Assembly (NCBI GenBank): GCA_963704165.1
Contig: CAVPHD010000002.1
Span: forward strand, 32,001 to 96,000
Direction of reading: 5' to 3'
Length of the DNA stretch: 64,000 nt
From: an uncultured delta proteobacterium
Lineage (GTDB): Bacteria; Myxococcota_A; UBA9160; SZUA-336
Shown here: positions 22,679 through 35,425 of the stretch, one piece after another
Layout of the letters: each line of letters opens with the position of its first letter
How positions within the stretch are numbered: the first letter of the stretch is position 1
Made by a program: the position numbers and the translations under genes
The notes under the pieces: model-generated
The model's input: only the letters and a program-made list of their open reading frames with translations
Told to the model about the DNA's origin: nothing
Database searches by the model: none

Positions 22679-23590
22679 TCAGCCGCGCACTCCGAGGACC
22701 CGCCGCAGCTCCGGCGCCGCGCTCGAGGGTATCGCAAGGATCTCGCCACTCTCCGGCACAGTGTCTGTCACGGCGCGGATCCCATGCTTCCCGACGGCAC
22801 AGAATTCGTAGTCGAGCCGCCGCAACAGATCCAAAACCGTCTCGACGTTGCCGCCGTGCCGATCCCAGTGGCGCTTCCTGTACTCGAAGATGAGGATCGG
22901 CCGGTGCTGCTCCAGGATCGGCCGGAGCTGATCGATCACGATCGTCTCATGTCCCTCGACGTCGATCTTGATGAAATCGCATGTCGGCAGCGGCGCTTCC
23001 CGCACCAGCGTCAGGCCGGAAATCGCTTGCACCTCGATCTTCTCCGTGGTGCCTTCCGCAACGGGCTGGAGGCTCGAGATGCCGGTTCTCGAGGCGTCCG
23101 CCGGCACGGCATGGAAGGACACGGGGCCATCGTGGTCCGACAACGCGGCCTCGACCACGGTCACATGTCCCAGTCGGTTGAGCGCGACGTTTTCCCGAAG
23201 CCGCGCGGCCATCCGCGGATGCGGCTCGACCGCAATGACTCGACCGGATGGTCCCGTCGCCCACGCCATCACCAGCGTATGCGTGCCGATGTTGGCACCG
23301 ACATCGAGGCAGACCGCACCCGGCTTCACCATCCGCCGGATCGCGTCGACGACGAGCGGCTCGTGGCAGCCGTGGAACAGAAGGCGGTAGTCGACCGAGC
23401 GGGAGGTATCGATGTGGATGGAGCCTTGGCCATACGGTGCGACCAAGTGCCGCCCCTTGCCCGGCGCGCCCTTCGGGCACGCCCACGCCGCCACGGCCTT
23501 GCAGAGCTCGTGTACCAAGGGAACGCGTCGCCGCATCACCGGCCGGAGGAAGAGCGCGAGATTCAGAACCCGCTGGTCGCTCCAGAGCAT
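22679..23590 (-). CDS. FkbM family methyltransferase
   Basis: LDVGANIGTH, AVEP, AALSD, FIKIDVEGHE, PILIFE. Confidence 0.9.
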   Translation of the reverse strand: MLWSDQRVLNLALFLRPVMRRRVPLVHELCKAVAAWACPKGAPGKGRHLVAPYGQGSIHIDTSRSVDYRLLFHGCHEPLVVDAIRRMVKPGAVCLDVGANIGTHTLVMAWATGPSGRVIAVEPHPRMAARLRENVALNRLGHVTVVEAALSDHDGPVSFHAVPADASRTGISSLQPVAEGTTEKIEVQAISGLTLVREAPLPTCDFIKIDVEGHETIVIDQLRPILEQHRPILIFEYRKRHWDRHGGNVETVLDLLRRLDYEFCAVGKHGIRAVTDTVPESGEILAIPSSAAPELRRVLGVRG

Positions 23591-23649: not shown

Positions 23650-24750
23650 CTACGCCTCCAGGCTCCGCACGAACGTTTCGATCGGGCTGTGCTCGCTGGC
23701 GAGCCCGGCCGCTCGGCGTCTCGAAGCGTGCTCGTTCGCGAAGTCGCGGTAGAGCGCGATCACGCGCGGCACGGCCGCAGCCGCCCCAGCGCGATTTCCG
23801 GCGGTGATCAACGCCAGGCTCGAGATGAAGATCGGCGCGCCGAGCAGGGCGACGGCGGAGTTCTCCACCTCGTCGAGGTGGTTGGCGATGGCGGTCGCCT
23901 CGTGCGGTCGCGTCGAGATCAGGTAGCGCATGTGCCCGATTCCGTAGGCGAGCGAGCGCGACACGTCCTGGACGCCGAAGCGCGCGATCGTCTCGTCCGC
24001 CGCGTTCGTCGAGACGGCTCCGACATGGCGCAGCAGCGACTGCATCAGGCCGCAGAGCAGCAGATACCCGGACGCAGAGGCGCAAGGGTAGGTGCTCGCG
24101 TCGAAGACCGCCTTCAGCAACTCGCCGAGCGGAGCATGGTCGCGGCCGAGCCCGGTTCCGCCCGCGATGGCGCGCTTGCGGAAGACGTCCGCGAGCTGGG
24201 CCGCGTCGAACATCTGCGTGCACTGCCACATCTTGAGCTCCACCAGCTCCTGGTTGATGCGCCAGACCCACTTCGAAGGAATGTCGCCCAGGATCGTGGC
24301 CATGCCGGTGAGGTCGGTGTAGAGCTGCGCCAATGCCCGCTCGAAGTCGGGCGAGTGATCGAGCTTCTCGACGGCGTCCCAGGGGACCTGTCGCGACGGG
24401 ATCCAGTGGCGGGCCTTGGACTCCTCGTAGAGCTCGGGCGCATTTTCGGACCAGACCTCGCTCTTGCGATTGATGTCGTAGCCCAGGTGCGGAAGGCCCG
24501 GGGGCTGGACCGCACCGCGCGGTGCCATCGAGTAGTTGTGGCGGATCTTCTCGGGAATCTGATCCCACGAGTACCGGCCGACGTTCGTGTCGCCGAAGGT
24601 CAGCCCGCGCCGCGCGTGACTCGGCCGACAGTTCGCGTCCTCGCGGCCGGACGTCATCCAGTCGAGCGTCAGCTTGCCCTTCAGGATCTCGACCGAGCGC
24701 GCCAGGATCTCCGGGTTGTTGAAGAAGTCGTCTCTCGCGTAGTAGCCCAT
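23650..24750 (-). CDS. Ferritin-like fold protein lacking iron ligands (beta-like paralog)
   Basis: Colinear with 24770..25894 (RRGLT, APRGA, VW..EE..W..VPW, VFRKRA.AG), but the two DEARH motifs read DAAQL and DVSRS. Confidence 0.8.
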   Translation of the reverse strand: MGYYARDDFFNNPEILARSVEILKGKLTLDWMTSGREDANCRPSHARRGLTFGDTNVGRYSWDQIPEKIRHNYSMAPRGAVQPPGLPHLGYDINRKSEVWSENAPELYEESKARHWIPSRQVPWDAVEKLDHSPDFERALAQLYTDLTGMATILGDIPSKWVWRINQELVELKMWQCTQMFDAAQLADVFRKRAIAGGTGLGRDHAPLGELLKAVFDASTYPCASASGYLLLCGLMQSLLRHVGAVSTNAADETIARFGVQDVSRSLAYGIGHMRYLISTRPHEATAIANHLDEVENSAVALLGAPIFISSLALITAGNRAGAAAAVPRVIALYRDFANEHASRRRAAGLASEHSPIETFVRSLEA

Positions 24751-24769
24751 TTCGCTTCCTTTCCTCGGC

Positions 24770-25894
24770 TCAGGCCATGATTCCGGCGATCATCCGCTTC
24801 TGCAGCTCGAGCAACGGGCTGCGGGTGCGGCGCTCCGGCAGGCCGGCGCGCTCCGCACGGTGGAAGTACTCCTCGATCTGCTTGCCCTGGAAGGCGCCGA
24901 CCGTCTCGATGCCCTTGCGGATGCACTCCGGCGTGGTGCCCTTGCCGCCGAGCACGATCATCGACTCGAGCTGGTCGGGATTGAACAGACCCGAGAGGTG
25001 CCGCTCGGCCTCGTCGAGGAAGCCGTTGATCTGCGGGCGGACCTCCGGGCAGTTGTCCATCAGGTACTTCAGGTGCTGCAGCCCGTACGAGACGTGCCGT
25101 GCCTCGTCCTGCATCACGAGCTGGAACATCCGCTGCTCGACCGGGGTCGGCGAGATGTACTCGCTCGAGCGGAAGAGTGTCAGGATGAATCCCTCGCCGA
25201 GAACGTGCAGGAAGACGCTGCCCTCGCTGTAGCTGTCGGCCTCGAGGATGCCCTTGAGCGCGTGCTCGCCGCGCACGCTCGCGCGGAACAGACCCGCGCC
25301 CGCGAGCGCCCGCTTGCGGAACACTTCCGCGTGTCGCGCTTCGTCGATCGCCTGCGTGGCGATGAAGCCCTTCACGTCCTGGAAGTAGCTGTTCATGTGG
25401 TGGCTCCACTTCGCCGGCAGGTCGGTCGCGATCATCTCGACCTCGGAGAGCAGAGTGCAGAGCTGACAGAACGCGACCTCGATGTCCTCGGGGATCTCGT
25501 ACTTGTCCATGTCGCTCCAGGGAACGTCGGTCGTCGCGTTCCACTGCCGGCTCATGGCCTCTTCCCAGTAGCTCTGGACGCGGTACGCCCAGACGTCGGA
25601 CTTCTTGTTCAGCGACGGACCGAGGTCCGGCTGATCGGTGCCCTCGGCGAGGATCGCGCCGCGCGGAGCGACGCCGCGATTCTCGCGAACCACGCCGGGC
25701 GTGTTCTCGATCGAGTAGGGGCCGACCTCGCAGTCCTCGAGCGTGAGACCGCGCCGCGGGTCGGCGCGCCGGACCTTCACTTCTTCGCGCGCCCGGTCGA
25801 GCCAACCGAAGTCGAGGTTGCCCTTCTTGATGTCGCGAACGCGGAGATTGAAGTCGGAGTTGTACGAGAAATCATTCGTTCCGTAGTAGCTCAT
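24770..25894 (-). CDS. Ferritin-like diiron carboxylate protein (alpha-like)
   Basis: Full E...ExxH...E...ExxH set: SEVEM, DEARH, LGEGF, DEARH; GGAGG RBS. Confidence 0.85.
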   Translation of the reverse strand: MSYYGTNDFSYNSDFNLRVRDIKKGNLDFGWLDRAREEVKVRRADPRRGLTLEDCEVGPYSIENTPGVVRENRGVAPRGAILAEGTDQPDLGPSLNKKSDVWAYRVQSYWEEAMSRQWNATTDVPWSDMDKYEIPEDIEVAFCQLCTLLSEVEMIATDLPAKWSHHMNSYFQDVKGFIATQAIDEARHAEVFRKRALAGAGLFRASVRGEHALKGILEADSYSEGSVFLHVLGEGFILTLFRSSEYISPTPVEQRMFQLVMQDEARHVSYGLQHLKYLMDNCPEVRPQINGFLDEAERHLSGLFNPDQLESMIVLGGKGTTPECIRKGIETVGAFQGKQIEEYFHRAERAGLPERRTRSPLLELQKRMIAGIMA

Positions 25895-25930
25895 GATCGT
25901 CCTCCCGTGCGGGCCTTGCAGGCCTGCTGG

Positions 25931-26371
25931 CTAAGCCCACTCGATCTTGAGATCGGCCGCCTGGTTCACGAATGCCTGGATCGTCGCCATGAAGCGATAG
26001 AACTTGTCGTGCCCCTCCGGATCGTCGTAGACGACCTTCATGCGGTCGCCGACGTGGGAGAGGCTGTTCAGCGTGTGGGACGGCGTCGGCAGTCCGCCGC
26101 CCTTCTGGATCACCTCGAACATCTCCTTCCAGAGCGCGAGCGGAGCGTCGAGCGTGAAGTCGAAGCCGGCGCCGCTGGCGCTCGAGACCTCGCGAACGTC
26201 GGAGCACTCGAAGACGTCGAACTTCAGCGAGTACAAGTGCGGGCTCGTGCCGCTCACCTTCACGCCCATCACCGTGTCACAGAAGCCGAGCTTCTCGAAC
26301 TCGCCCGGATTCGCCTTCATGCGACGCGCCAGCTCCTGGAAGAAGTCCACCGAAGGAAATTTGACCGCCAT
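25931..26371 (-). CDS. SCP2-like (sterol carrier fold) protein
   Basis: KFPSVDFFQEL, FDFTLDAPLALWKEM pattern typical of small SCP2-like proteins; GGAG RBS. Confidence 0.6.
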   Translation of the reverse strand: MAVKFPSVDFFQELARRMKANPGEFEKLGFCDTVMGVKVSGTSPHLYSLKFDVFECSDVREVSSASGAGFDFTLDAPLALWKEMFEVIQKGGGLPTPSHTLNSLSHVGDRMKVVYDDPEGHDKFYRFMATIQAFVNQAADLKIEWA

Positions 26372-26406
26372 TGCTTGCTCTCCTCGCTCCGTTTGGTCTT
26401 GATCGT

Positions 26407-27087
26407 CTACGACACGGTCGCGGGCCAGGCCTCGACGCCGAGGTAGCCCAGAAACGCGCGTGTCAGCTCTGCACCCAGCTTCTCGTCCGAGGCGGGAATC
26501 CCGTGGACCCCGCCGTCGCCGAAGAGAATCGCTTGCTCGAGAGTCGCGAGCACGAATCGAAGCCCGAACGCCACGGCCGTCGCCGGATCGGGGTGCCGGA
26601 TCCCCTCGGCCCGTGGCAGCAGAAGCACGCACAGGCGGTCGCTCACGTGAGCCGCCAGGCGTTCCTTGCGCTCGATCATCGACGGCTCGCGCCGCGTGTG
26701 CACCAGAAGTTCGCGCAGCACGCCGCCGCCCGCGCGATAGACCTGCACCAGGAAGTCGACCAGCTCACCGACGATCTCGTCGATGCCAGCGCCGTCCCAG
26801 CGATCGGGATCGAGCGTGACGTCCGTCGTCAGGTGCGCCTCCTCGACGAAGCGATCCTGAAGGCAGTGCAGCACACCCAGCTTGTCGTGGAAGCGCGAGT
26901 AGACCGCGCCGACCGAGAATCCCGCCCGGGCCGCGATGTCCGCGACCGTGACGTCGTCGAAGCCCTTGTTCGCGATCAACGCCTCGGCGCTGTCGAGCAG
27001 GCGTTCGAGCGTCTGTTGGCTGCGCGCCTGGCGCACGGGCTGAATCCAGTTGAAACGGGAGTTCGCGCGCGTATCGGCCAGGTACAT
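26407..27087 (-). CDS. TetR family regulator
   Basis: QARSQQTLERLLDSAE...GFDDVTVADIAARAGFSVGAVYSRFHDK. Confidence 0.92.
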   Translation of the reverse strand: MYLADTRANSRFNWIQPVRQARSQQTLERLLDSAEALIANKGFDDVTVADIAARAGFSVGAVYSRFHDKLGVLHCLQDRFVEEAHLTTDVTLDPDRWDGAGIDEIVGELVDFLVQVYRAGGGVLRELLVHTRREPSMIERKERLAAHVSDRLCVLLLPRAEGIRHPDPATAVAFGLRFVLATLEQAILFGDGGVHGIPASDEKLGAELTRAFLGYLGVEAWPATVS

Positions 27088-30398: not shown

Positions 30399-31022
30399 TC
30401 AGAAGGTGGCGCCGCGCTTCTCGCACTCTTCGCGGAAGCCCGCGAGGTAGTCGGCGCGAGCCTTCGCGGTGGGCTGCGTAGTCTGCCACGCGACGACGTC
30501 GCGAATGTCGCGAAGCCCGATCGAGCCGAGCACGAACCGCAGATAGGGCAGCTGGAAGTCTCCGTAGTCACCCGGCGGTGTCGAGGAGCGGGTCAGCAGC
30601 AGCTGAACCGGCCGATTCCGCAACAGACCCACGTGCATCATCTTCTCGAAGTCGTACCCGAACGTGAGGATGGGCTGCACGATGATGTCGAGGTAGTGCT
30701 TGAGCGCCCACGGCACCGAGTAGTTCCACATCGGGCTCGACAGGACGATCTTGTCACTCGCATCGAAGCGCGTGATCTGCGCCTTGACTGCATCCCAGAC
30801 TTCGACCTGCGCCGCGTTCACCTCTTCCCGGAAGATCGGCGCGAACTTGGCGTGCGCCGCGTCGGTGGCGAAGCGCGGCAGGTCGGCATCGAAGACGTTC
30901 AGGGTCTCGATCGTGTCGTCGGGGTTCGCTTTCCGGTAGGTGTCGAGGAACCACGAGGCCAGCTGCGACGAGCTGGAGCGGTTGCCTCGGGGGCTGGCCT
31001 CGATGTGGAGGATCTTGCTCAT
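30399..31022 (-). CDS. azoR: FMN-dependent NADH-azoreductase family protein
   Basis: KILHIEASPRG..SSS, PMWNYSVPWALKHYLD..QP..TF, DFQLPYLR. Confidence 0.82.
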   Translation of the reverse strand: MSKILHIEASPRGNRSSSSQLASWFLDTYRKANPDDTIETLNVFDADLPRFATDAAHAKFAPIFREEVNAAQVEVWDAVKAQITRFDASDKIVLSSPMWNYSVPWALKHYLDIIVQPILTFGYDFEKMMHVGLLRNRPVQLLLTRSSTPPGDYGDFQLPYLRFVLGSIGLRDIRDVVAWQTTQPTAKARADYLAGFREECEKRGATF

Positions 31023-31056
31023 CGCTGGATGTCCTTCGGGCTCGGGTGGTCGTCTC

Positions 31057-31878
31057 TCAGATGTTCGCGAGACAGAAGTCGTGCACCAGCTTCGAGAATG
31101 TCTCGGTCTCGAAGAGCATCAGCTGGTGTCCGGCCCCCGGGACGATCTCGATCTGCACCGGCCCCCCGATGCTCTTGGCCACCGCCTCGATCAGGGCGGG
31201 CGTCGCATGCGGGTCCTTCTCGCCCGACGCGTAGAGCACCGGCTTCCGGTTCTCGCTCGGGGGCTGCGGCGGGTCGTACTGGAACAACGAGGCCCAGGAA
31301 GCCAGGTCGTAGCTCCAGGTGTTGTAGGGGTCGAGCTTCTTCTGCTCTTGCGCGCCGGCATAGCCGTAGTCGACGTCGAAGTTGAAGAACGTGCCGATGT
31401 CGAGCCGCGCGCCGCGGCCGAGCTGCTCGAGCACCTTGGCGACATCCGGGCTTCGCCAAGCGGCCCCGGCTCCCGCAACCAGCGGGCTCCCCGGCACCGC
31501 GAGTGACCCCATGCAGATGGCACCGGTCACGGCGGGCGAGTCGATCGCAGAGATCGCCGCAGCGACGCCGAGGCTCGAGCCGAGCGTGAAGACCGGCAAG
31601 CCCGTCCGCGCCCTCACGTGCGCGGCCCAGTCGCGGCTCGCCTGCGCCCACGCGTCCATCGTCCAGGTTCCGCGGGGCCTGTTCGTGGTCGAGCGACCGT
31701 GGCCGGGCGCGTCGTAGCACCAGATATCGACGCCCTTGGCCGAGTGGTGCTCGCAGAACACATCGTAGATGCCGGCGTGGCCACCGAGTCCGTGCGAGAT
31801 GACGAGTGCGTACTTCGCGTCGGGTCCCTGGAATCGGAAGGCGTGGAGCTCGTTCAAGACGTGGGCTTCGGTCCGCAT
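31057..31878 (-). CDS. Alpha/beta hydrolase (lysophospholipase-like)
   Basis: HGLGGH, DAPGHGRS, GSSLG nucleophile elbow, GEKD, AGHQ; GGAGG RBS. Confidence 0.88.
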   Translation of the reverse strand: MRTEAHVLNELHAFRFQGPDAKYALVISHGLGGHAGIYDVFCEHHSAKGVDIWCYDAPGHGRSTTNRPRGTWTMDAWAQASRDWAAHVRARTGLPVFTLGSSLGVAAAISAIDSPAVTGAICMGSLAVPGSPLVAGAGAAWRSPDVAKVLEQLGRGARLDIGTFFNFDVDYGYAGAQEQKKLDPYNTWSYDLASWASLFQYDPPQPPSENRKPVLYASGEKDPHATPALIEAVAKSIGGPVQIEIVPGAGHQLMLFETETFSKLVHDFCLANI

Positions 31879-31880
31879 TT

Positions 31881-32540
31881 CTACCTCCCAGTCTTGGCTC
31901 GGAAGGCGACGTCCATCTCTTCCAGCGTCTCTGCACAGATCGGGTGCTGCTTGATCCGTGCGTTGTAGTCGGCCAGCTTCGAGGGCATCGGCTTGTCGAG
32001 CTTCAGTACCGGGATCGCGAACCGCTCGACGAAGAAGAGTGCACCGACCAGCGCGCAGTCGGCGAGGCTCAGCGCATCGCCGATCGCGAACTCGGAGCCC
32101 GCGAGGCCCGACCGATTGCGGTAGGTGTCGACCCACTCGAGCCCGGTCGAGACCTCGGTGGCGAGCATCTTCACGAGCTCGCGGTTGCTGCTGCCGAGAT
32201 GCGGCAGCGTCTTGAACATCGGCGAGCAAACGTAGAGGTCGTTCAGCCGCACGAGCAGCCTGACCTGTGCGCGGGCGACCGGGTCGGCCGGCAGCAGGGA
32301 GGGCTCGGGATGGAGCTCCTCCAGCAGCTCACAGATCGTTGCCGACTCAGTGATGACTCGGTCGCCGATCTGCAGCGCGGGGATCTTTCCGGTCGGATTG
32401 ATCTGCTTGTACTCGTCCGAGCCCGTGCCGCCCGGCGGCAACACCAGATTGACGGTCTTCTCGATCCCCTTTGCGCGTATCTGGATTCGGATGCGGGCGG
32501 CGTAGGGGGAGATATCGGCCTGGTAGAGCGTCATGTCCAT
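31881..32540 (-). CDS. Glutathione S-transferase family protein
   Basis: SPYAARIR, INPTGKIPAL, ESATICE, LSLADC. Confidence 0.9.
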   Translation of the reverse strand: MDMTLYQADISPYAARIRIQIRAKGIEKTVNLVLPPGGTGSDEYKQINPTGKIPALQIGDRVITESATICELLEELHPEPSLLPADPVARAQVRLLVRLNDLYVCSPMFKTLPHLGSSNRELVKMLATEVSTGLEWVDTYRNRSGLAGSEFAIGDALSLADCALVGALFFVERFAIPVLKLDKPMPSKLADYNARIKQHPICAETLEEMDVAFRAKTGR

Positions 32541-32566
32541 GTGCTCGTCCTCGTCGATCTCCGCGG

Positions 32567-33745
32567 TCAGACCAGCAGGTTCTGCATGGGCTGACCGAGC
32601 AGAATTCGCCCGTAGTCGGCGTATCTCGATTCGCGGTCGAAGATGACGTGGTTGGACCCTGCCGTGACGTCGCGGAGGGCCCGCTGGATCGGATTGTCGA
32701 GACGGCTCCCGCTGGCGCCTGTGACGGAGCAGATGTCCTGCACGGCCTCACGACACATGAAGACCGCGTGGCCCATGCGCGTCAGCCAGGTGCTTCGCGT
32801 CTCGATGGACGCGCCATTTCGCTGCGCCATCACGTCGGCGAGCACGCTGCGGAAGAGGAGCTCGGCCGCTTCGATCGAGAGCGCCGCACGCGCGACGACG
32901 GAAGGCTTGCCCTGGAGCCGGTCCATGCCGCCGGGCGGGGCCTGGCCCGCCGCCAACTTGGCCTTCGTCTGCGACTGGTACTCCTCGAGCGCCATCTGGG
33001 CTGCGCCGAGCATGGGCAGTCCGGCGGCGAACCCCAGGATGGGCAGGAGTGGAGTGCGATAGAGGGAGCCGGTGTGGAGCCGACTGGCCTCGCCCGTCGC
33101 GTTCATCAGCTCGAGCATCGACACGGCTCGCGTCTCCGGTACGAAGACGTCGTCGATCTTGATGTCCCACGATCCGGTGCCGCAGCACCCTGCGACGTAC
33201 CAGTCGTCGATGGCGTCGACGTCTTCGCGAGGCAGGGCAAAGAAGAGGGGAACAGGCGGCGCGTCCCCGTCCTGGACCAGCGCACCGGCCATTACCCAAT
33301 CGGCGTGGACGATGCCGGTGCCCCACTGCCACAGACCGTTCACTCGATAGCCCCCGTCCACCTTCGTGGCCGTGCCGCCCGCTACGTTCAACGTGGCCGG
33401 GGCGAGGACGTAGTTCCGGTCCGAGAAGAGCTCGTTCTGGAAGCTTTCCGGGTAGCCACAGAACCAGAAGGCGTGCTCGATGTAGAAGCCGATGAGCCAG
33501 CCCAGCGACGCGTCGGCTCGCGAGAGCGTGAGCGCGACCTCGAAGAACGTGTCGATGTCGGCCTCGTGGCCGCCATGGCGCTTCGGGGTCATGAGCGAGA
33601 ACAGGCCGCTCTCGCGAACGGCGTCGATGACCTCGTCCAGGGGGCGTCGGGCGAGTTCTGCGTCGCGCGCTCTGGCGCGCAGCAGTGGGACGAGCTTCTT
33701 GGCGGCTTCGATCAGCGCTGCAGGTTCCATCGGTGAATGCGTCAT
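32567..33745 (-). CDS. Flavin-dependent monooxygenase oxygenase subunit, acyl-CoA dehydrogenase fold (HsaA-like)
   Basis: PKRHGG, DASLGW, GYRVNGLWQWGTGIVHADW, DDWYVAGCCGTGS, NPIQRALRD..H. Confidence 0.85.
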   Translation of the reverse strand: MTHSPMEPAALIEAAKKLVPLLRARARDAELARRPLDEVIDAVRESGLFSLMTPKRHGGHEADIDTFFEVALTLSRADASLGWLIGFYIEHAFWFCGYPESFQNELFSDRNYVLAPATLNVAGGTATKVDGGYRVNGLWQWGTGIVHADWVMAGALVQDGDAPPVPLFFALPREDVDAIDDWYVAGCCGTGSWDIKIDDVFVPETRAVSMLELMNATGEASRLHTGSLYRTPLLPILGFAAGLPMLGAAQMALEEYQSQTKAKLAAGQAPPGGMDRLQGKPSVVARAALSIEAAELLFRSVLADVMAQRNGASIETRSTWLTRMGHAVFMCREAVQDICSVTGASGSRLDNPIQRALRDVTAGSNHVIFDRESRYADYGRILLGQPMQNLLV

Positions 33746-33776
33746 TTCGTTCTCCGTTGTTTGTCGACGGCGCGTG

Positions 33777-34946
33777 TCAGTACGCGCGCTCGAGGATCTC
33801 GATGATCTGTTCCGGCGATTCGATCGGCCTCGGGTTCGCTCTCACCCAGGCGTTCGGCATGGCACCCGAGGCGATCGCGTCGAAGTGGTGCTTCTCGACG
33901 CCGACGTCGCGGAGTCGGGTCGGAAGGCCCAATCGCTCGACCAACTCTCGCACGGTATCGCCAGCGGCGGAGCCGGGTGATCCGAGCGCATCGGCGATCC
34001 TCTGCTGGGCCTCGGACGTGCGGGTCGCGTTGAAGTCGAGAATCTGCGGCAGCATCACGCAGCTCGTGTAGCCGTGAGGCACGCCCGCGACCGCGCCCAG
34101 CTGATGGCCGATCCCATGGCTCGCGCCGTAGGGCACACGGTTCAGCCCGGCGCAGGCCATCCACACGCCCATCTGGCTGTCGAGGCGTGCCTCGAGATCG
34201 TCCGGCTTCTCGCGGGTAAAGGGCAGCGAGCGGCTCAGCAGGCGAAGGGCCTCGAGCGCGCCGGCATCCGCAATCGGCTCCGGCGCGGTGGAGCAGAGCG
34301 TCTCGACCGCGTGATCGATCGCGCGAACACCCGTCGATAGCCAGAGGGGCATTGGCGTCGCGAGCGTGATCGCGGGGTCGAGGATGACGGCCGCGGGCCC
34401 GATCTCCTTGCCAGAGAAGAGCTGCTTCGTCTGCGTCTCCGGGTCGACGCATCCGCTGAGATCGCTGAACTCCGCACCCGACAAGGTCGTGGGCGCGGCG
34501 ATCTGTCGGAGCGGGGGTGATGCGACGCCGGGCGTGTGCCGCGAACTGTCGTCGCGGACGGAGACCGCGAAGCGAGCCAACTCCTCCGGCTCGTGTACGC
34601 CCTCCGCGAGGCAGAGCAGCGCCATCTTCACCGTGTCGATCGGCGTTCCGCCGCCGATCGTCACGACCAAGTCCGCGTTCCGATCGCGGAGGAAGCCGGC
34701 AAGCTCGAGGACGCTGTCGCGGGGGACGTGTTCGCGCGTCTCGTCGAAGAGGCCTGCGACACACGGACCGAGCGCCGCCCCCAGGGAGTCGACGATGGGC
34801 GTTTCGCGAGACAGCGTCTTCGAGGCGACGATCACGACGCGCTCGGCGCCGCGCTCGGACACCTCGGCCTGCACGGCTTTGGCGAGCGCGAGTCCGAGAT
34901 GGACGCGCTCGAGGCGGAGGTTCTCGAAGCTGCGGGAACGGATCAC
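33777..34946 (-). CDS. Iron-containing alcohol dehydrogenase / maleylacetate reductase-like protein
   Basis: GGGTPID, PTTLSGAE, ILDP, AIDHAVE, HGIGHQLG..VPHG; GTGA overlap with marR. Confidence 0.88.
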   Translation of the reverse strand: MIRSRSFENLRLERVHLGLALAKAVQAEVSERGAERVVIVASKTLSRETPIVDSLGAALGPCVAGLFDETREHVPRDSVLELAGFLRDRNADLVVTIGGGTPIDTVKMALLCLAEGVHEPEELARFAVSVRDDSSRHTPGVASPPLRQIAAPTTLSGAEFSDLSGCVDPETQTKQLFSGKEIGPAAVILDPAITLATPMPLWLSTGVRAIDHAVETLCSTAPEPIADAGALEALRLLSRSLPFTREKPDDLEARLDSQMGVWMACAGLNRVPYGASHGIGHQLGAVAGVPHGYTSCVMLPQILDFNATRTSEAQQRIADALGSPGSAAGDTVRELVERLGLPTRLRDVGVEKHHFDAIASGAMPNAWVRANPRPIESPEQIIEILERAY

Positions 34947-35425
34947 GGGCGTCTCGTCGAATCCCGGGGGGCGACGCTCTCGATCTCGGGGAGGGCGCCC
35001 CAGCTCTCCTTGAGCGCACTGCGGAGCGCGTCGATCCGCCTCTTGCCCAGGCGCTCCTCGAGCTCGCGCTCCATCCCTCGAATGATCTCGATCGCGTCCC
35101 TTCCGATGGCCGCACCGGACCGCGGGAAGCTCAGAACCTTCCGGCGCCCGTCGGTGGGATCGATCTCGAGGACGATCAGTCCGCGCTCGATCATCGACGT
35201 CGTCGCCTGATTGATCGCCTGGCGTGAGACGCCGAGTGCGCGTGCGATGTCGACGGGACTCGTCACTCCCTGGTCGACGAAGAACATGATCTCGGATTCC
35301 GTGCGCGAGAGCGGTTGCCACCCACGAGCGGCGAGGTTCTCTTGCAGGCAGCGATCCATCCAGCTGAACCCCTGAAGCAGGCCCCACATCAGGTCGGTCC
35401 GTCCCGATCCTTCGGTCTTCGGCAT
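34943..35425 (-). CDS. MarR family regulator
   Basis: IARALGVSRQAINQ...RGLI..DPTDGRRK winged HTH. Confidence 0.88.
   Translation of the reverse strand: MPKTEGSGRTDLMWGLLQGFSWMDRCLQENLAARGWQPLSRTESEIMFFVDQGVTSPVDIARALGVSRQAINQATTSMIERGLIVLEIDPTDGRRKVLSFPRSGAAIGRDAIEIIRGMERELEERLGKRRIDALRSALKESWGALPEIESVAPRDSTRRP

Follow-up and report, generated by a model that had tools for sequence, protein, structure and literature searches.

This study concerns a four-gene operon of an uncultured delta proteobacterium (Myxococcota_A, UBA9160, SZUA-336; assembly GCA_963704165.1). The operon was analyzed within a 64,000-nucleotide stretch of contig CAVPHD010000002.1 (positions 32,001 to 96,000), hereafter the window, to which all coordinates refer unless another locus is named. 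It encodes a TetR-family regulator, a small protein (S) with a predicted SCP2 fold, and two paralogous ferritin-like proteins, A and B, of which only A has kept a complete set of metal ligands. The features are as follows.

26407-27087, minus strand: tetR, first gene of the operon, TetR-family regulator of 226 amino acids (aa) (PF00440, E value 1.6e-12)
25931-26371, minus strand: S, 146 aa, protein of predicted SCP2 fold, likely a lipid carrier or subunit (fold model)
24770-25894, minus strand: A (alpha), 374 aa, ferritin-like protein of the R2 type carrying the full E/ExxH/E/ExxH set of dimetal ligands (sequence and model)
23650-24750, minus strand: B (beta), 366 aa, full-length ligand-less paralogue of A (sequence alignment)
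27143-27115, minus strand: sigma70-type promoter, TTGACC-17-TATCGT (promoter scan)
27133-27110, minus strand: conserved GAATNCGAATTATNRTTCT-like motif overlapping the promoter, likely the TetR operator (motif search)

The genes are arranged in the order tetR-S-A-B, all co-oriented, with intergenic gaps of 35, 36, and 19 bp, and the S-A-B trio spans 2.7 kb. A first-pass annotation, made from the sequence alone, had described four tightly spaced, co-oriented genes, a ribosome-binding site specific to B, and the absence of a reductase or ferredoxin gene from the cluster. All three points were borne out: the genes share the minus strand, purine-rich Shine-Dalgarno-like stretches read from the sequence precede S, A, and B, and neither a reductase nor a ferredoxin gene was found in or beside the cluster in the window.

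The same annotation had described two colinear paralogues of about 370 aa, the first with all six diiron ligands and the second with none. The alignment of A with B starts at residue 1 and shows 34% identity over 316 aa (E value 3e-59). In A, the dimetal ligands are E153, E185, H188, E234, E264, and H267, set in a four-helix bundle with the E/ExxH/E/ExxH pattern of the R2-like ferritin superfamily; the corresponding residues in B are A151, A183, L186, C233, V263, and S266. E153 rather than E151 was assigned as the first ligand, because E151 is kept in just 34 of 47 alignment rows that had been picked for having all six ligands and because Binatia B proteins often retain E151 and have lost E153. 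On the basis of its sequence, A would bind two metals and activate O2.

To analyze conservation, we confirmed 227 relatives in a genome scan and examined the best 80 loci, which are mostly from uncultured Myxococcota/Deltaproteobacteria and Binatia. The six ligands are complete in all 80 A proteins. A ligand-less B was scored in 73 loci, with 0 ligands in 51, 1 in 12, and 2 in 10; the ligands retained are almost all H188 (22 cases) and E185 (9 cases), in Binatia-type loci. The loss of the ligands noted in the second protein is complete in the window and leaves no more than two in any of the 73 orthologues. The S-A-B arrangement is not due to chance, since the trio is intact in 66 of the 80 loci (order S-A-B in 42 and S-B-A in 24, under a completeness filter); most of the others were cut by contig ends or rejected by length or start filters. 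Among the seven loci without a scored B, five are at contig ends, and in two (L051 and L053) B is located at another site of the genome; overall, B is displaced by 2 to 14 kb or onto another contig in L066, L067, L051, and L053. In a sample of 301 genomes of the phylum, with six candidates scored per genome, 32 genomes matched at an E value of ≤1e-30, and each of the 24 B matches adjoined an A; one further A was truncated by a contig end. A Binatia-centered phylum sample was too dilute (3 of 121). Conservation of the trio and linkage of B to A, which were among the points that the first-pass annotation had named for checking, were thereby established: B orthologues are poor in ligands and stay with A.

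B has not been left to drift. The structural residues W102, E111, E112, R116, W118, W126, Q144, and D184, together with R193-K194-R195, D263, R266, and G271, have at most one exception among the 84 A and 75 B rows aligned. Ratios of nonsynonymous to synonymous substitution (dN/dS) were determined by the Nei-Gojobori method for 151 pairs with an A identity of ≥86%, retaining dS values of 0.05 to 1.5; these pairs are not independent. The median was 0.074 in A (128 pairs), against 0.160 in B and 0.142 in S (125 pairs each). The value for B indicates that it is under purifying selection and is not decaying, as the first-pass annotation had supposed. The only feature that would suit a decaying duplicate is that B changes at about double the rate of A; such a reading, already contradicted by the ligand and length data of the orthologues and by the dN/dS value, also has against it reading frames that are open and full length across two phylum-level groups and the invariant residues, and we give it practically no credence.

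The identification of the third component relies on its predicted structure. The model of S (pLDDT 90.5) matched best the T. thermophilus SCP2 structure 2cx7 (Z score 13.8, root mean square deviation 2.3, 123 residues aligned), Foldseek matched it to SCP2 with an E value of 2.8e-5, and the top 10 VIA-align rows were all SCP2 or SCP2-domain chains. The SCP2-like carrier named in the first-pass annotation thus reappears as a predicted fold. At the sequence level, PF02036 was matched by none of 67 S proteins and the window S had no Pfam match, and ESM Atlas returned one "SCP2 domain" cluster among mostly hypothetical clusters. Proteins of the SCP2 type bind lipid in a hydrophobic tunnel. From its modeled fold, S is predicted to deliver a lipophilic substrate.

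A, B, and S matched no Pfam or NCBIfam family above its cutoff. The best NCBIfam hint for A was the R2lox model (PRK08326/NF006200), with 26.6 bits against a cutoff of 194; this model scores weakly on all 67 A proteins searched, with a best E value of 1.9e-8 among these orthologues. The only PDB sequence match to A with an E value under 0.001 was a VlmB homologue (E value 5e-4), and ESM Atlas returned mostly hypothetical clusters, AurF accounting for 50% of the top one. The structural model of A (pLDDT 78.6, with residues 1 to 110 weak) was closest to the VlmB homologue 6d9f (Z score 23.9), an aldehyde-deformylating oxygenase (ADO)-like protein (5ux2; 22.0), and R2lox (4hr0; 21.7), at 14 to 18% identity, followed by a phenol hydroxylase chain (20.4), MMOH (20.2), PaaA/C (16.6), acyl-ACP desaturase (15.6), DesA2 (14.3), and AurF (13.9). 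Foldseek ranked R2lox and VlmB first. A profile of A retrieved 1,151 clusters at an E value of ≤0.001 and 170 clusters (50% identity) at ≤1e-30, and for a family of this extent there is no curated model or solved structure. Literature searches, whose coverage excluded most subscription journals, returned no description of the family. The operon is real and conserved and, as far as searched, undescribed.

Comparison with individual systems delimits the family further. A shares with R2lox the R2-type fold (root mean square deviation 3.2 over 248 aligned residues, 15% identity), the six-ligand pattern, and the weak NF006200 match. It differs in its score far under the cutoff, in a conserved N-terminal extension of about 100 residues, in the ligand-less paralogue kept alongside, and in the lack of a Tyr at the cross-link position. 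By sequence register with GkR2lox, the Tyr lies five residues before the third ligand, a position occupied by L229 in A and by L, M, I, or V in all 47 six-ligand rows; the Val aligns with either A156 or I155, according to the register. R2lox is further characterized by a Mn/Fe cofactor and a tunnel for a fatty-acid ligand. PMC9314684 describes the Tyr-Val ether cross-link and also reports that ferredoxin and sterol-carrier genes are neighbors of haloarchaeal R2lox genes, which are induced on hexadecane. An SCP2 partner beside an R2-like protein thus has a precedent in that report.

A metal-bearing alpha subunit with a metal-free beta subunit of the same fold is the architecture of the BMM family (sMMO and the toluene and phenol hydroxylases), to whose chains the A fold is matched with Z scores of 17 to 20. 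In both motifs of B, the Asp and Arg are retained and the Glu and His are lost, as is the case in BMM beta chains. PF02332 (Phenol_Hydrox) did not match A or B at an E value of ≤1 and matched none of the 67 A proteins at ≤0.1; in the organism's own genome it matched two other ferritin-like genes. BMM operons contain a coupling protein and a reductase, according to PMC11057499, whereas the only small gene of the operon studied here encodes the SCP2 fold and no reductase recurs in the 80 loci; a genome-wide search with PF02406 gave no match anywhere, controls included. Furthermore, A and B are sisters with 34% identity, which argues that their duplication was separate from that of the BMM subunits. 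The PaaABCE system likewise combines a catalytic subunit, a paralogue annotated in databases as structural (PaaC), and a small third gene. However, profiles of A, B, and S showed no similarity to E. coli PaaA, PaaC, and PaaB (probabilities of 3.0, 0.15, and 0.27, respectively), and near the trio there is neither a gene for a PaaE-type reductase nor any gene of the paa pathway. Acyl-ACP desaturase and ADO Pfam models were absent from the families matched by the 67 A proteins at an E value of ≤0.1, and PF11583 (AurF/CmlI) scored 12.6 bits on A against a cutoff of 29.6. The suspicion that the pair lies outside the BMM and PaaA/C families was therefore borne out, and no curated family fitted, R2lox, AurF, and acyl-ACP desaturases included. 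By analogy, the trio may function like a BMM or PaaA/C heteromer, with a fold related to that of R2lox and VlmB, while failing the sequence and operon tests of each family.

The nearest folds raise the alternative that A carries out another dimetal chemistry, such as aldehyde deformylation, N-oxygenation of the VlmB/AurF type, epoxidation, or an R2lox-like Mn/Fe oxidation. The top-ranking structures (VlmB 6d9f and 8wvr, and ADO), the PDB sequence match to VlmB, and the uniform, weak NF006200 scores are in keeping with it. Nevertheless, acyl-ACP reductase and N-N biosynthetic genes do not recur among the neighbor clusters of the trio; VlmB, according to PMC11705231, works with VlmO in such N-N biosynthetic clusters. 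We know of no VlmB or ADO that occurs in a paralogue-plus-SCP2 module. AurF and CmlI have an extra His ahead of the second ExxH. At this position (260), A, V, C, or S is present in 46 of 47 rows, with no His among the residues listed, and the cross-link Tyr of R2lox is not kept either. We consider such chemistries rather unlikely.

The organism's own genome contains three family loci, namely, the window operon, a second trio in the order S-B-A on contig C6 (L082:6362-8971), and a single-subunit module on C3 (L081:5607-8272). In the latter, a six-ligand protein, termed H, is followed by S and by a dicluster 4Fe-4S ferredoxin gene, with a divergent tetR opposite; hence, S accompanies both the two-gene and the single-subunit forms, and the ferredoxin missing from the trio is present in a single-subunit sister clade. 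In 80 metagenome loci, H was accompanied by S in 68 and by the dicluster ferredoxin in 60; all misses were at contig ends, within 304 bp (S) and 705 bp (ferredoxin) of H. A ligand-less paralogue was found beside H in none of these 80 loci, of which 35 have room on both sides. The divergent tetR is present in 41 of the 54 H loci that have upstream DNA. Relatives of this TetR score best, below the cutoff, on the LuxR/HapR model, and the H promoter, which reaches 16.4 bits on the operator matrix of the window (see below), includes a stretch similar to a Vibrio LuxR box. More distant relatives from other Myxococcota (L204, L206, L207, and L208) have a fused N-terminal TusA-like domain and, in 4 of 5 loci examined, lie in an operon with genes for an acyl-CoA dehydrogenase of the Rv1679/FadE16 type and a binding protein resembling Rv1680; no literature treating Rv1679 and Rv1680 together was found.

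To reconstruct how the pair arose, a quick tree of 104 rows was computed after 11 partial or chimeric rows of 115 had been dropped, followed by a careful tree of 45 chosen rows (LG+G4). A (support 100/99) and B (100/100) form sister clades (100/98) with mirrored subclades, and when the tree is rooted on the TusA-fused group, they are nested among six-ligand lineages. There is also another ligand-less clade, B' (100/99), which has the six-ligand proteins A' as its sister group (100/99); the named relatives of the latter come from Dehalococcoidia or Chloroflexi. A topology uniting B with B' was rejected (p-AU 0.0026, LG+G4, with groups named after the quick tree). The ligand-less copy thus arose inside the family, likely twice, and is not inherited from a BMM beta subunit or PaaC. 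This agrees with the first-pass proposal of an alpha/beta split independent of BMM and PaaA/C, for which the A-B homology, the PaaA/C profiles, and the tree all point to an event internal to the family. A plasmid search for the Dehalococcoidia A'/B' clade gave no match. Some record titles, such as Spirochaetaceae, Klebsiella, and Enterobacteriaceae (L004, L056, L057, L065, and similar), conflict with the tree and are likely mislabels; the L004 locus coincides with one in a genome of the window's class.

A complex prediction for A, S, two Fe, and B gave a score of 0.93; two controls in which B was replaced scored 0.00, but a control in which A was replaced, with B and S kept, scored 0.88, and the prediction counts neither for nor against a complex. 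Both proteins keep the N-terminal arm and the helix-linking residues invariant, so that an ancestral homodimer interface may be retained between them, and we consider it probable that A and B assemble. Alternatively, B might be a separate metal-free pseudoenzyme, with a ligand-binding, regulatory, or assembly function, beside an A homodimer that works with S. Single-subunit relatives do manage without B, the gene is displaced in the four loci mentioned above, and a degenerate desaturase paralogue discussed below is described as a homodimer; but strict 1:1 co-retention, mirrored trees, and common invariant residues are what is expected of paralogous heteromer subunits, for which BMM and PaaA/C, with PaaC annotated as structural, provide precedents. 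We judge this alternative quite unlikely.

The regulator is a less constant component. Among the 15 closest loci, 14 have tetR immediately ahead of S, an arrangement seen in 0 of the other 65, so that the first-pass view of TetR as a cluster member applies to the closest relatives and not to the core of the system. The promoter scan detected one promoter-like site, with 0.3 expected. The motif overlapping it precedes tetR in 13 relatives and in the window; the remaining one of the 15 sequences has no upstream DNA. With a matrix built without the window's site, this site ranked first genome-wide (24.1 bits), and sites were also found ahead of two TetR paralogues, which fits an autoregulatory operator; the conserved motif is likely one. 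The second-best match (20.9 bits; G000:C5:114334, L236:4334) is nearly palindromic and lies where a pgpA-like gene begins, in a run ending in recA. Among the loci of TetR paralogues (L249 to L267), 15 of 19 have another ferritin-like gene next, namely, 12 of one AurF-like group (5 of them scanned), 2 DUF455, and 1 other. The operons with AurF-like or DUF455 genes are L249 to L260, L264, L265, and L267; L256 additionally has an SCP2 and a Rieske-domain gene, located downstream and upstream, respectively. A further TetR paralogue (L235:363-6173, on G000:C9) lies directly upstream of a Tat-exported DMSO-reductase type II/ethylbenzene-dehydrogenase-like operon, the alpha subunit frame of which is just 427 aa and looks interrupted in the assembly.

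Expression was assessed in 4 of 21 listed RNA runs (three from sediment and one from a bioreactor), chosen by the window stretch. Contigs of relatives (approximately 93 to 94% identical) cover S, A, and B in all four runs and bridge S to A in four and A to B in three, which is not proof of a single transcript and may include DNA carry-over. A neighboring control stretch of 19.7 kb gave only short pieces in the same runs, the longest listed being 296 nucleotides; the flanks of the trio were mostly uncovered, and missing cover was not counted as evidence.

Taken together, we propose that A and B form a dimetal oxygenase that hydroxylates a lipophilic chain brought by S, with an unlinked electron donor, and we assign this proposal a probability of about 50%. 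Its parts carry different weights. The ancestor would be an enzyme-SCP2(-ferredoxin) module of the single-subunit kind, which is presumably homodimeric and still extant; after duplication, one copy would have retained its structural residues and lost the metal. A very probably performs O2 chemistry, and its reduced form would hydroxylate a C-H bond of the chain that S shuttles to the enzyme. Hydroxylation is slightly favored over desaturation or another oxidation. Regulator-hydroxylase-carrier units that are self-contained are exemplified by alkB-rubredoxin-TetR, and the preference derives from the similar make-up of the cassette, from a TetR subfamily that heads oxidizing enzymes, and from the hexadecane induction of haloarchaeal R2lox, reported beside ferredoxin and sterol-carrier genes (PMC9314684). 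Electrons would come from a ferredoxin-type carrier encoded away from the trio; a search for a conserved reductase or ferredoxin gene beside it found none, with a Cys-motif match of any kind in 6 of 80 loci and none recurring as a cluster. The dedicated ferredoxin of the H module fits a reductant-dependent oxygenase, and close orthologues of it occur in 5 of 43 genomes of the class, all of which have an H module. In the closest subclade, TetR would repress the operon at the promoter-overlapping operator until a lipophilic ligand binds. Of the earlier proposal of a diiron enzyme acting on a lipid, sterol, or acyl-CoA, the full ligand set and the SCP2-fold partner stand, and iron, assembly, chemistry, and substrate are still points that we infer.

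The main rival shares the same assembly and makes it a soluble desaturase of the cell's own acyl chains, like the plant acyl-ACP desaturases or mycobacterial DesA1/DesA2. The latter are a ferritin-like pair; DesA2 has altered metal sites and is described as a homodimer (PMC9050676), and the TetR-type MadR regulates desA1/desA2 through acyl-CoA binding (PMC8872791). This parallel, the self-contained cassette with its variable flanks, the ferredoxin of the sister H module, and a WS/DGAT wax-ester synthase gene located 12 bp behind the second trio of the genome (a cluster found in 4 of 83 loci) all suit a desaturase. Yet DesA1/DesA2 belong to another family (Z scores of 14 to 16), the acyl-ACP desaturase and DesA2 folds match A more weakly (15.6 and 14.3), no desaturase Pfam model matched the 67 A proteins at an E value of ≤0.1, and a patchy distribution with several paralogous modules per genome is better suited to peripheral metabolism. 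To our knowledge, DesA1/DesA2 have no SCP2 partner. We regard a desaturase as unlikely, if less so than the alternatives considered above.

A number of observations weigh against the hydroxylase proposal. (i) With the query used, the H-type ferredoxin was not found in 16 of 16 A/B genomes without an H module (one weak match). (ii) A second single-subunit clade (L199 to L202 and L212) has S with no ferredoxin nearby. (iii) No conserved pathway gene flanks the trio among the 80 loci, and a role in the remodeling of endogenous lipids fits equally well. (iv) The fold search picks no chemistry, with N-oxygenase, deformylase, R2lox, and BMM chains all at Z scores of 20 to 24. (v) The description of DesA2 as a homodimer means that a paralogue with a degenerate metal site is not necessarily a subunit. 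(vi) No study of any family member was found, and the family is known here from genes alone.

Several other genes surround the trio or belong to the same genome. In the window, an FkbM-type methyltransferase gene (22679-23590, same strand) lies 59 bp downstream of B and is not conserved beside the trio elsewhere. A co-oriented run at 30402-35425 encodes a flavodoxin-like azoreductase, an alpha/beta hydrolase, a glutathione S-transferase, and an HsaA-type flavin monooxygenase, with alcohol-dehydrogenase-like and MarR-like genes (both by eye) upstream; it has no link to the trio in other genomes. In 7 of the 80 loci (L043, L049, L050, L052, L054, L055, and L057), a Gfo/Idh/MocA oxidoreductase gene lies directly downstream of B; it overlaps B in L043 and is a possible product dehydrogenase. 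SDR and WS/DGAT neighbors are sporadic in the 80 loci, and no substrate follows from them. The genome (G000) has three heme-copper oxidase family matches and at least seven further ferritin-like genes (C1:212k, C4:324k and 356k, C11:157k and 228-230k, and C3:441k), some in tandem, of which those at C4:356k and C3:441k appear frameshifted. A search for a cultured host confirmed none; it named an Archangium sp. ferredoxin.

Soluble diiron enzymes carry out some of biology's hardest C-H oxidations, and we know of only a few alpha/beta families among them. The trio, together with a single-subunit cassette that has its own ferredoxin, is tractable for expression and substrate screens. The transition from homomer to heteromer is directly testable, given that identity between A and B is still 34%, that there are extant single-subunit sisters, that part of the site persists in Binatia beta proteins, and that the split was likely made twice. 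Identification of a substrate would, in addition, inform the still open role of R2lox, a protein with the same SCP2/ferredoxin context. More tentatively, and with the odds against it, the family may be a widespread class of multicomponent dimetal oxygenases in uncultured Myxococcota, Binatia, and Dehalococcoidia, with the SCP2 protein as an obligate substrate-presenting subunit. If so, its substrates would be recalcitrant lipids, such as long alkyl chains, isoprenoids, steroids, and hopanoids, and the family would preserve the path from a single-subunit ferredoxin-driven enzyme through a partly degenerate beta to a fully metal-free beta. The split, made twice, would then be a living replay of the origin of methane-monooxygenase-type alpha/beta enzymes.

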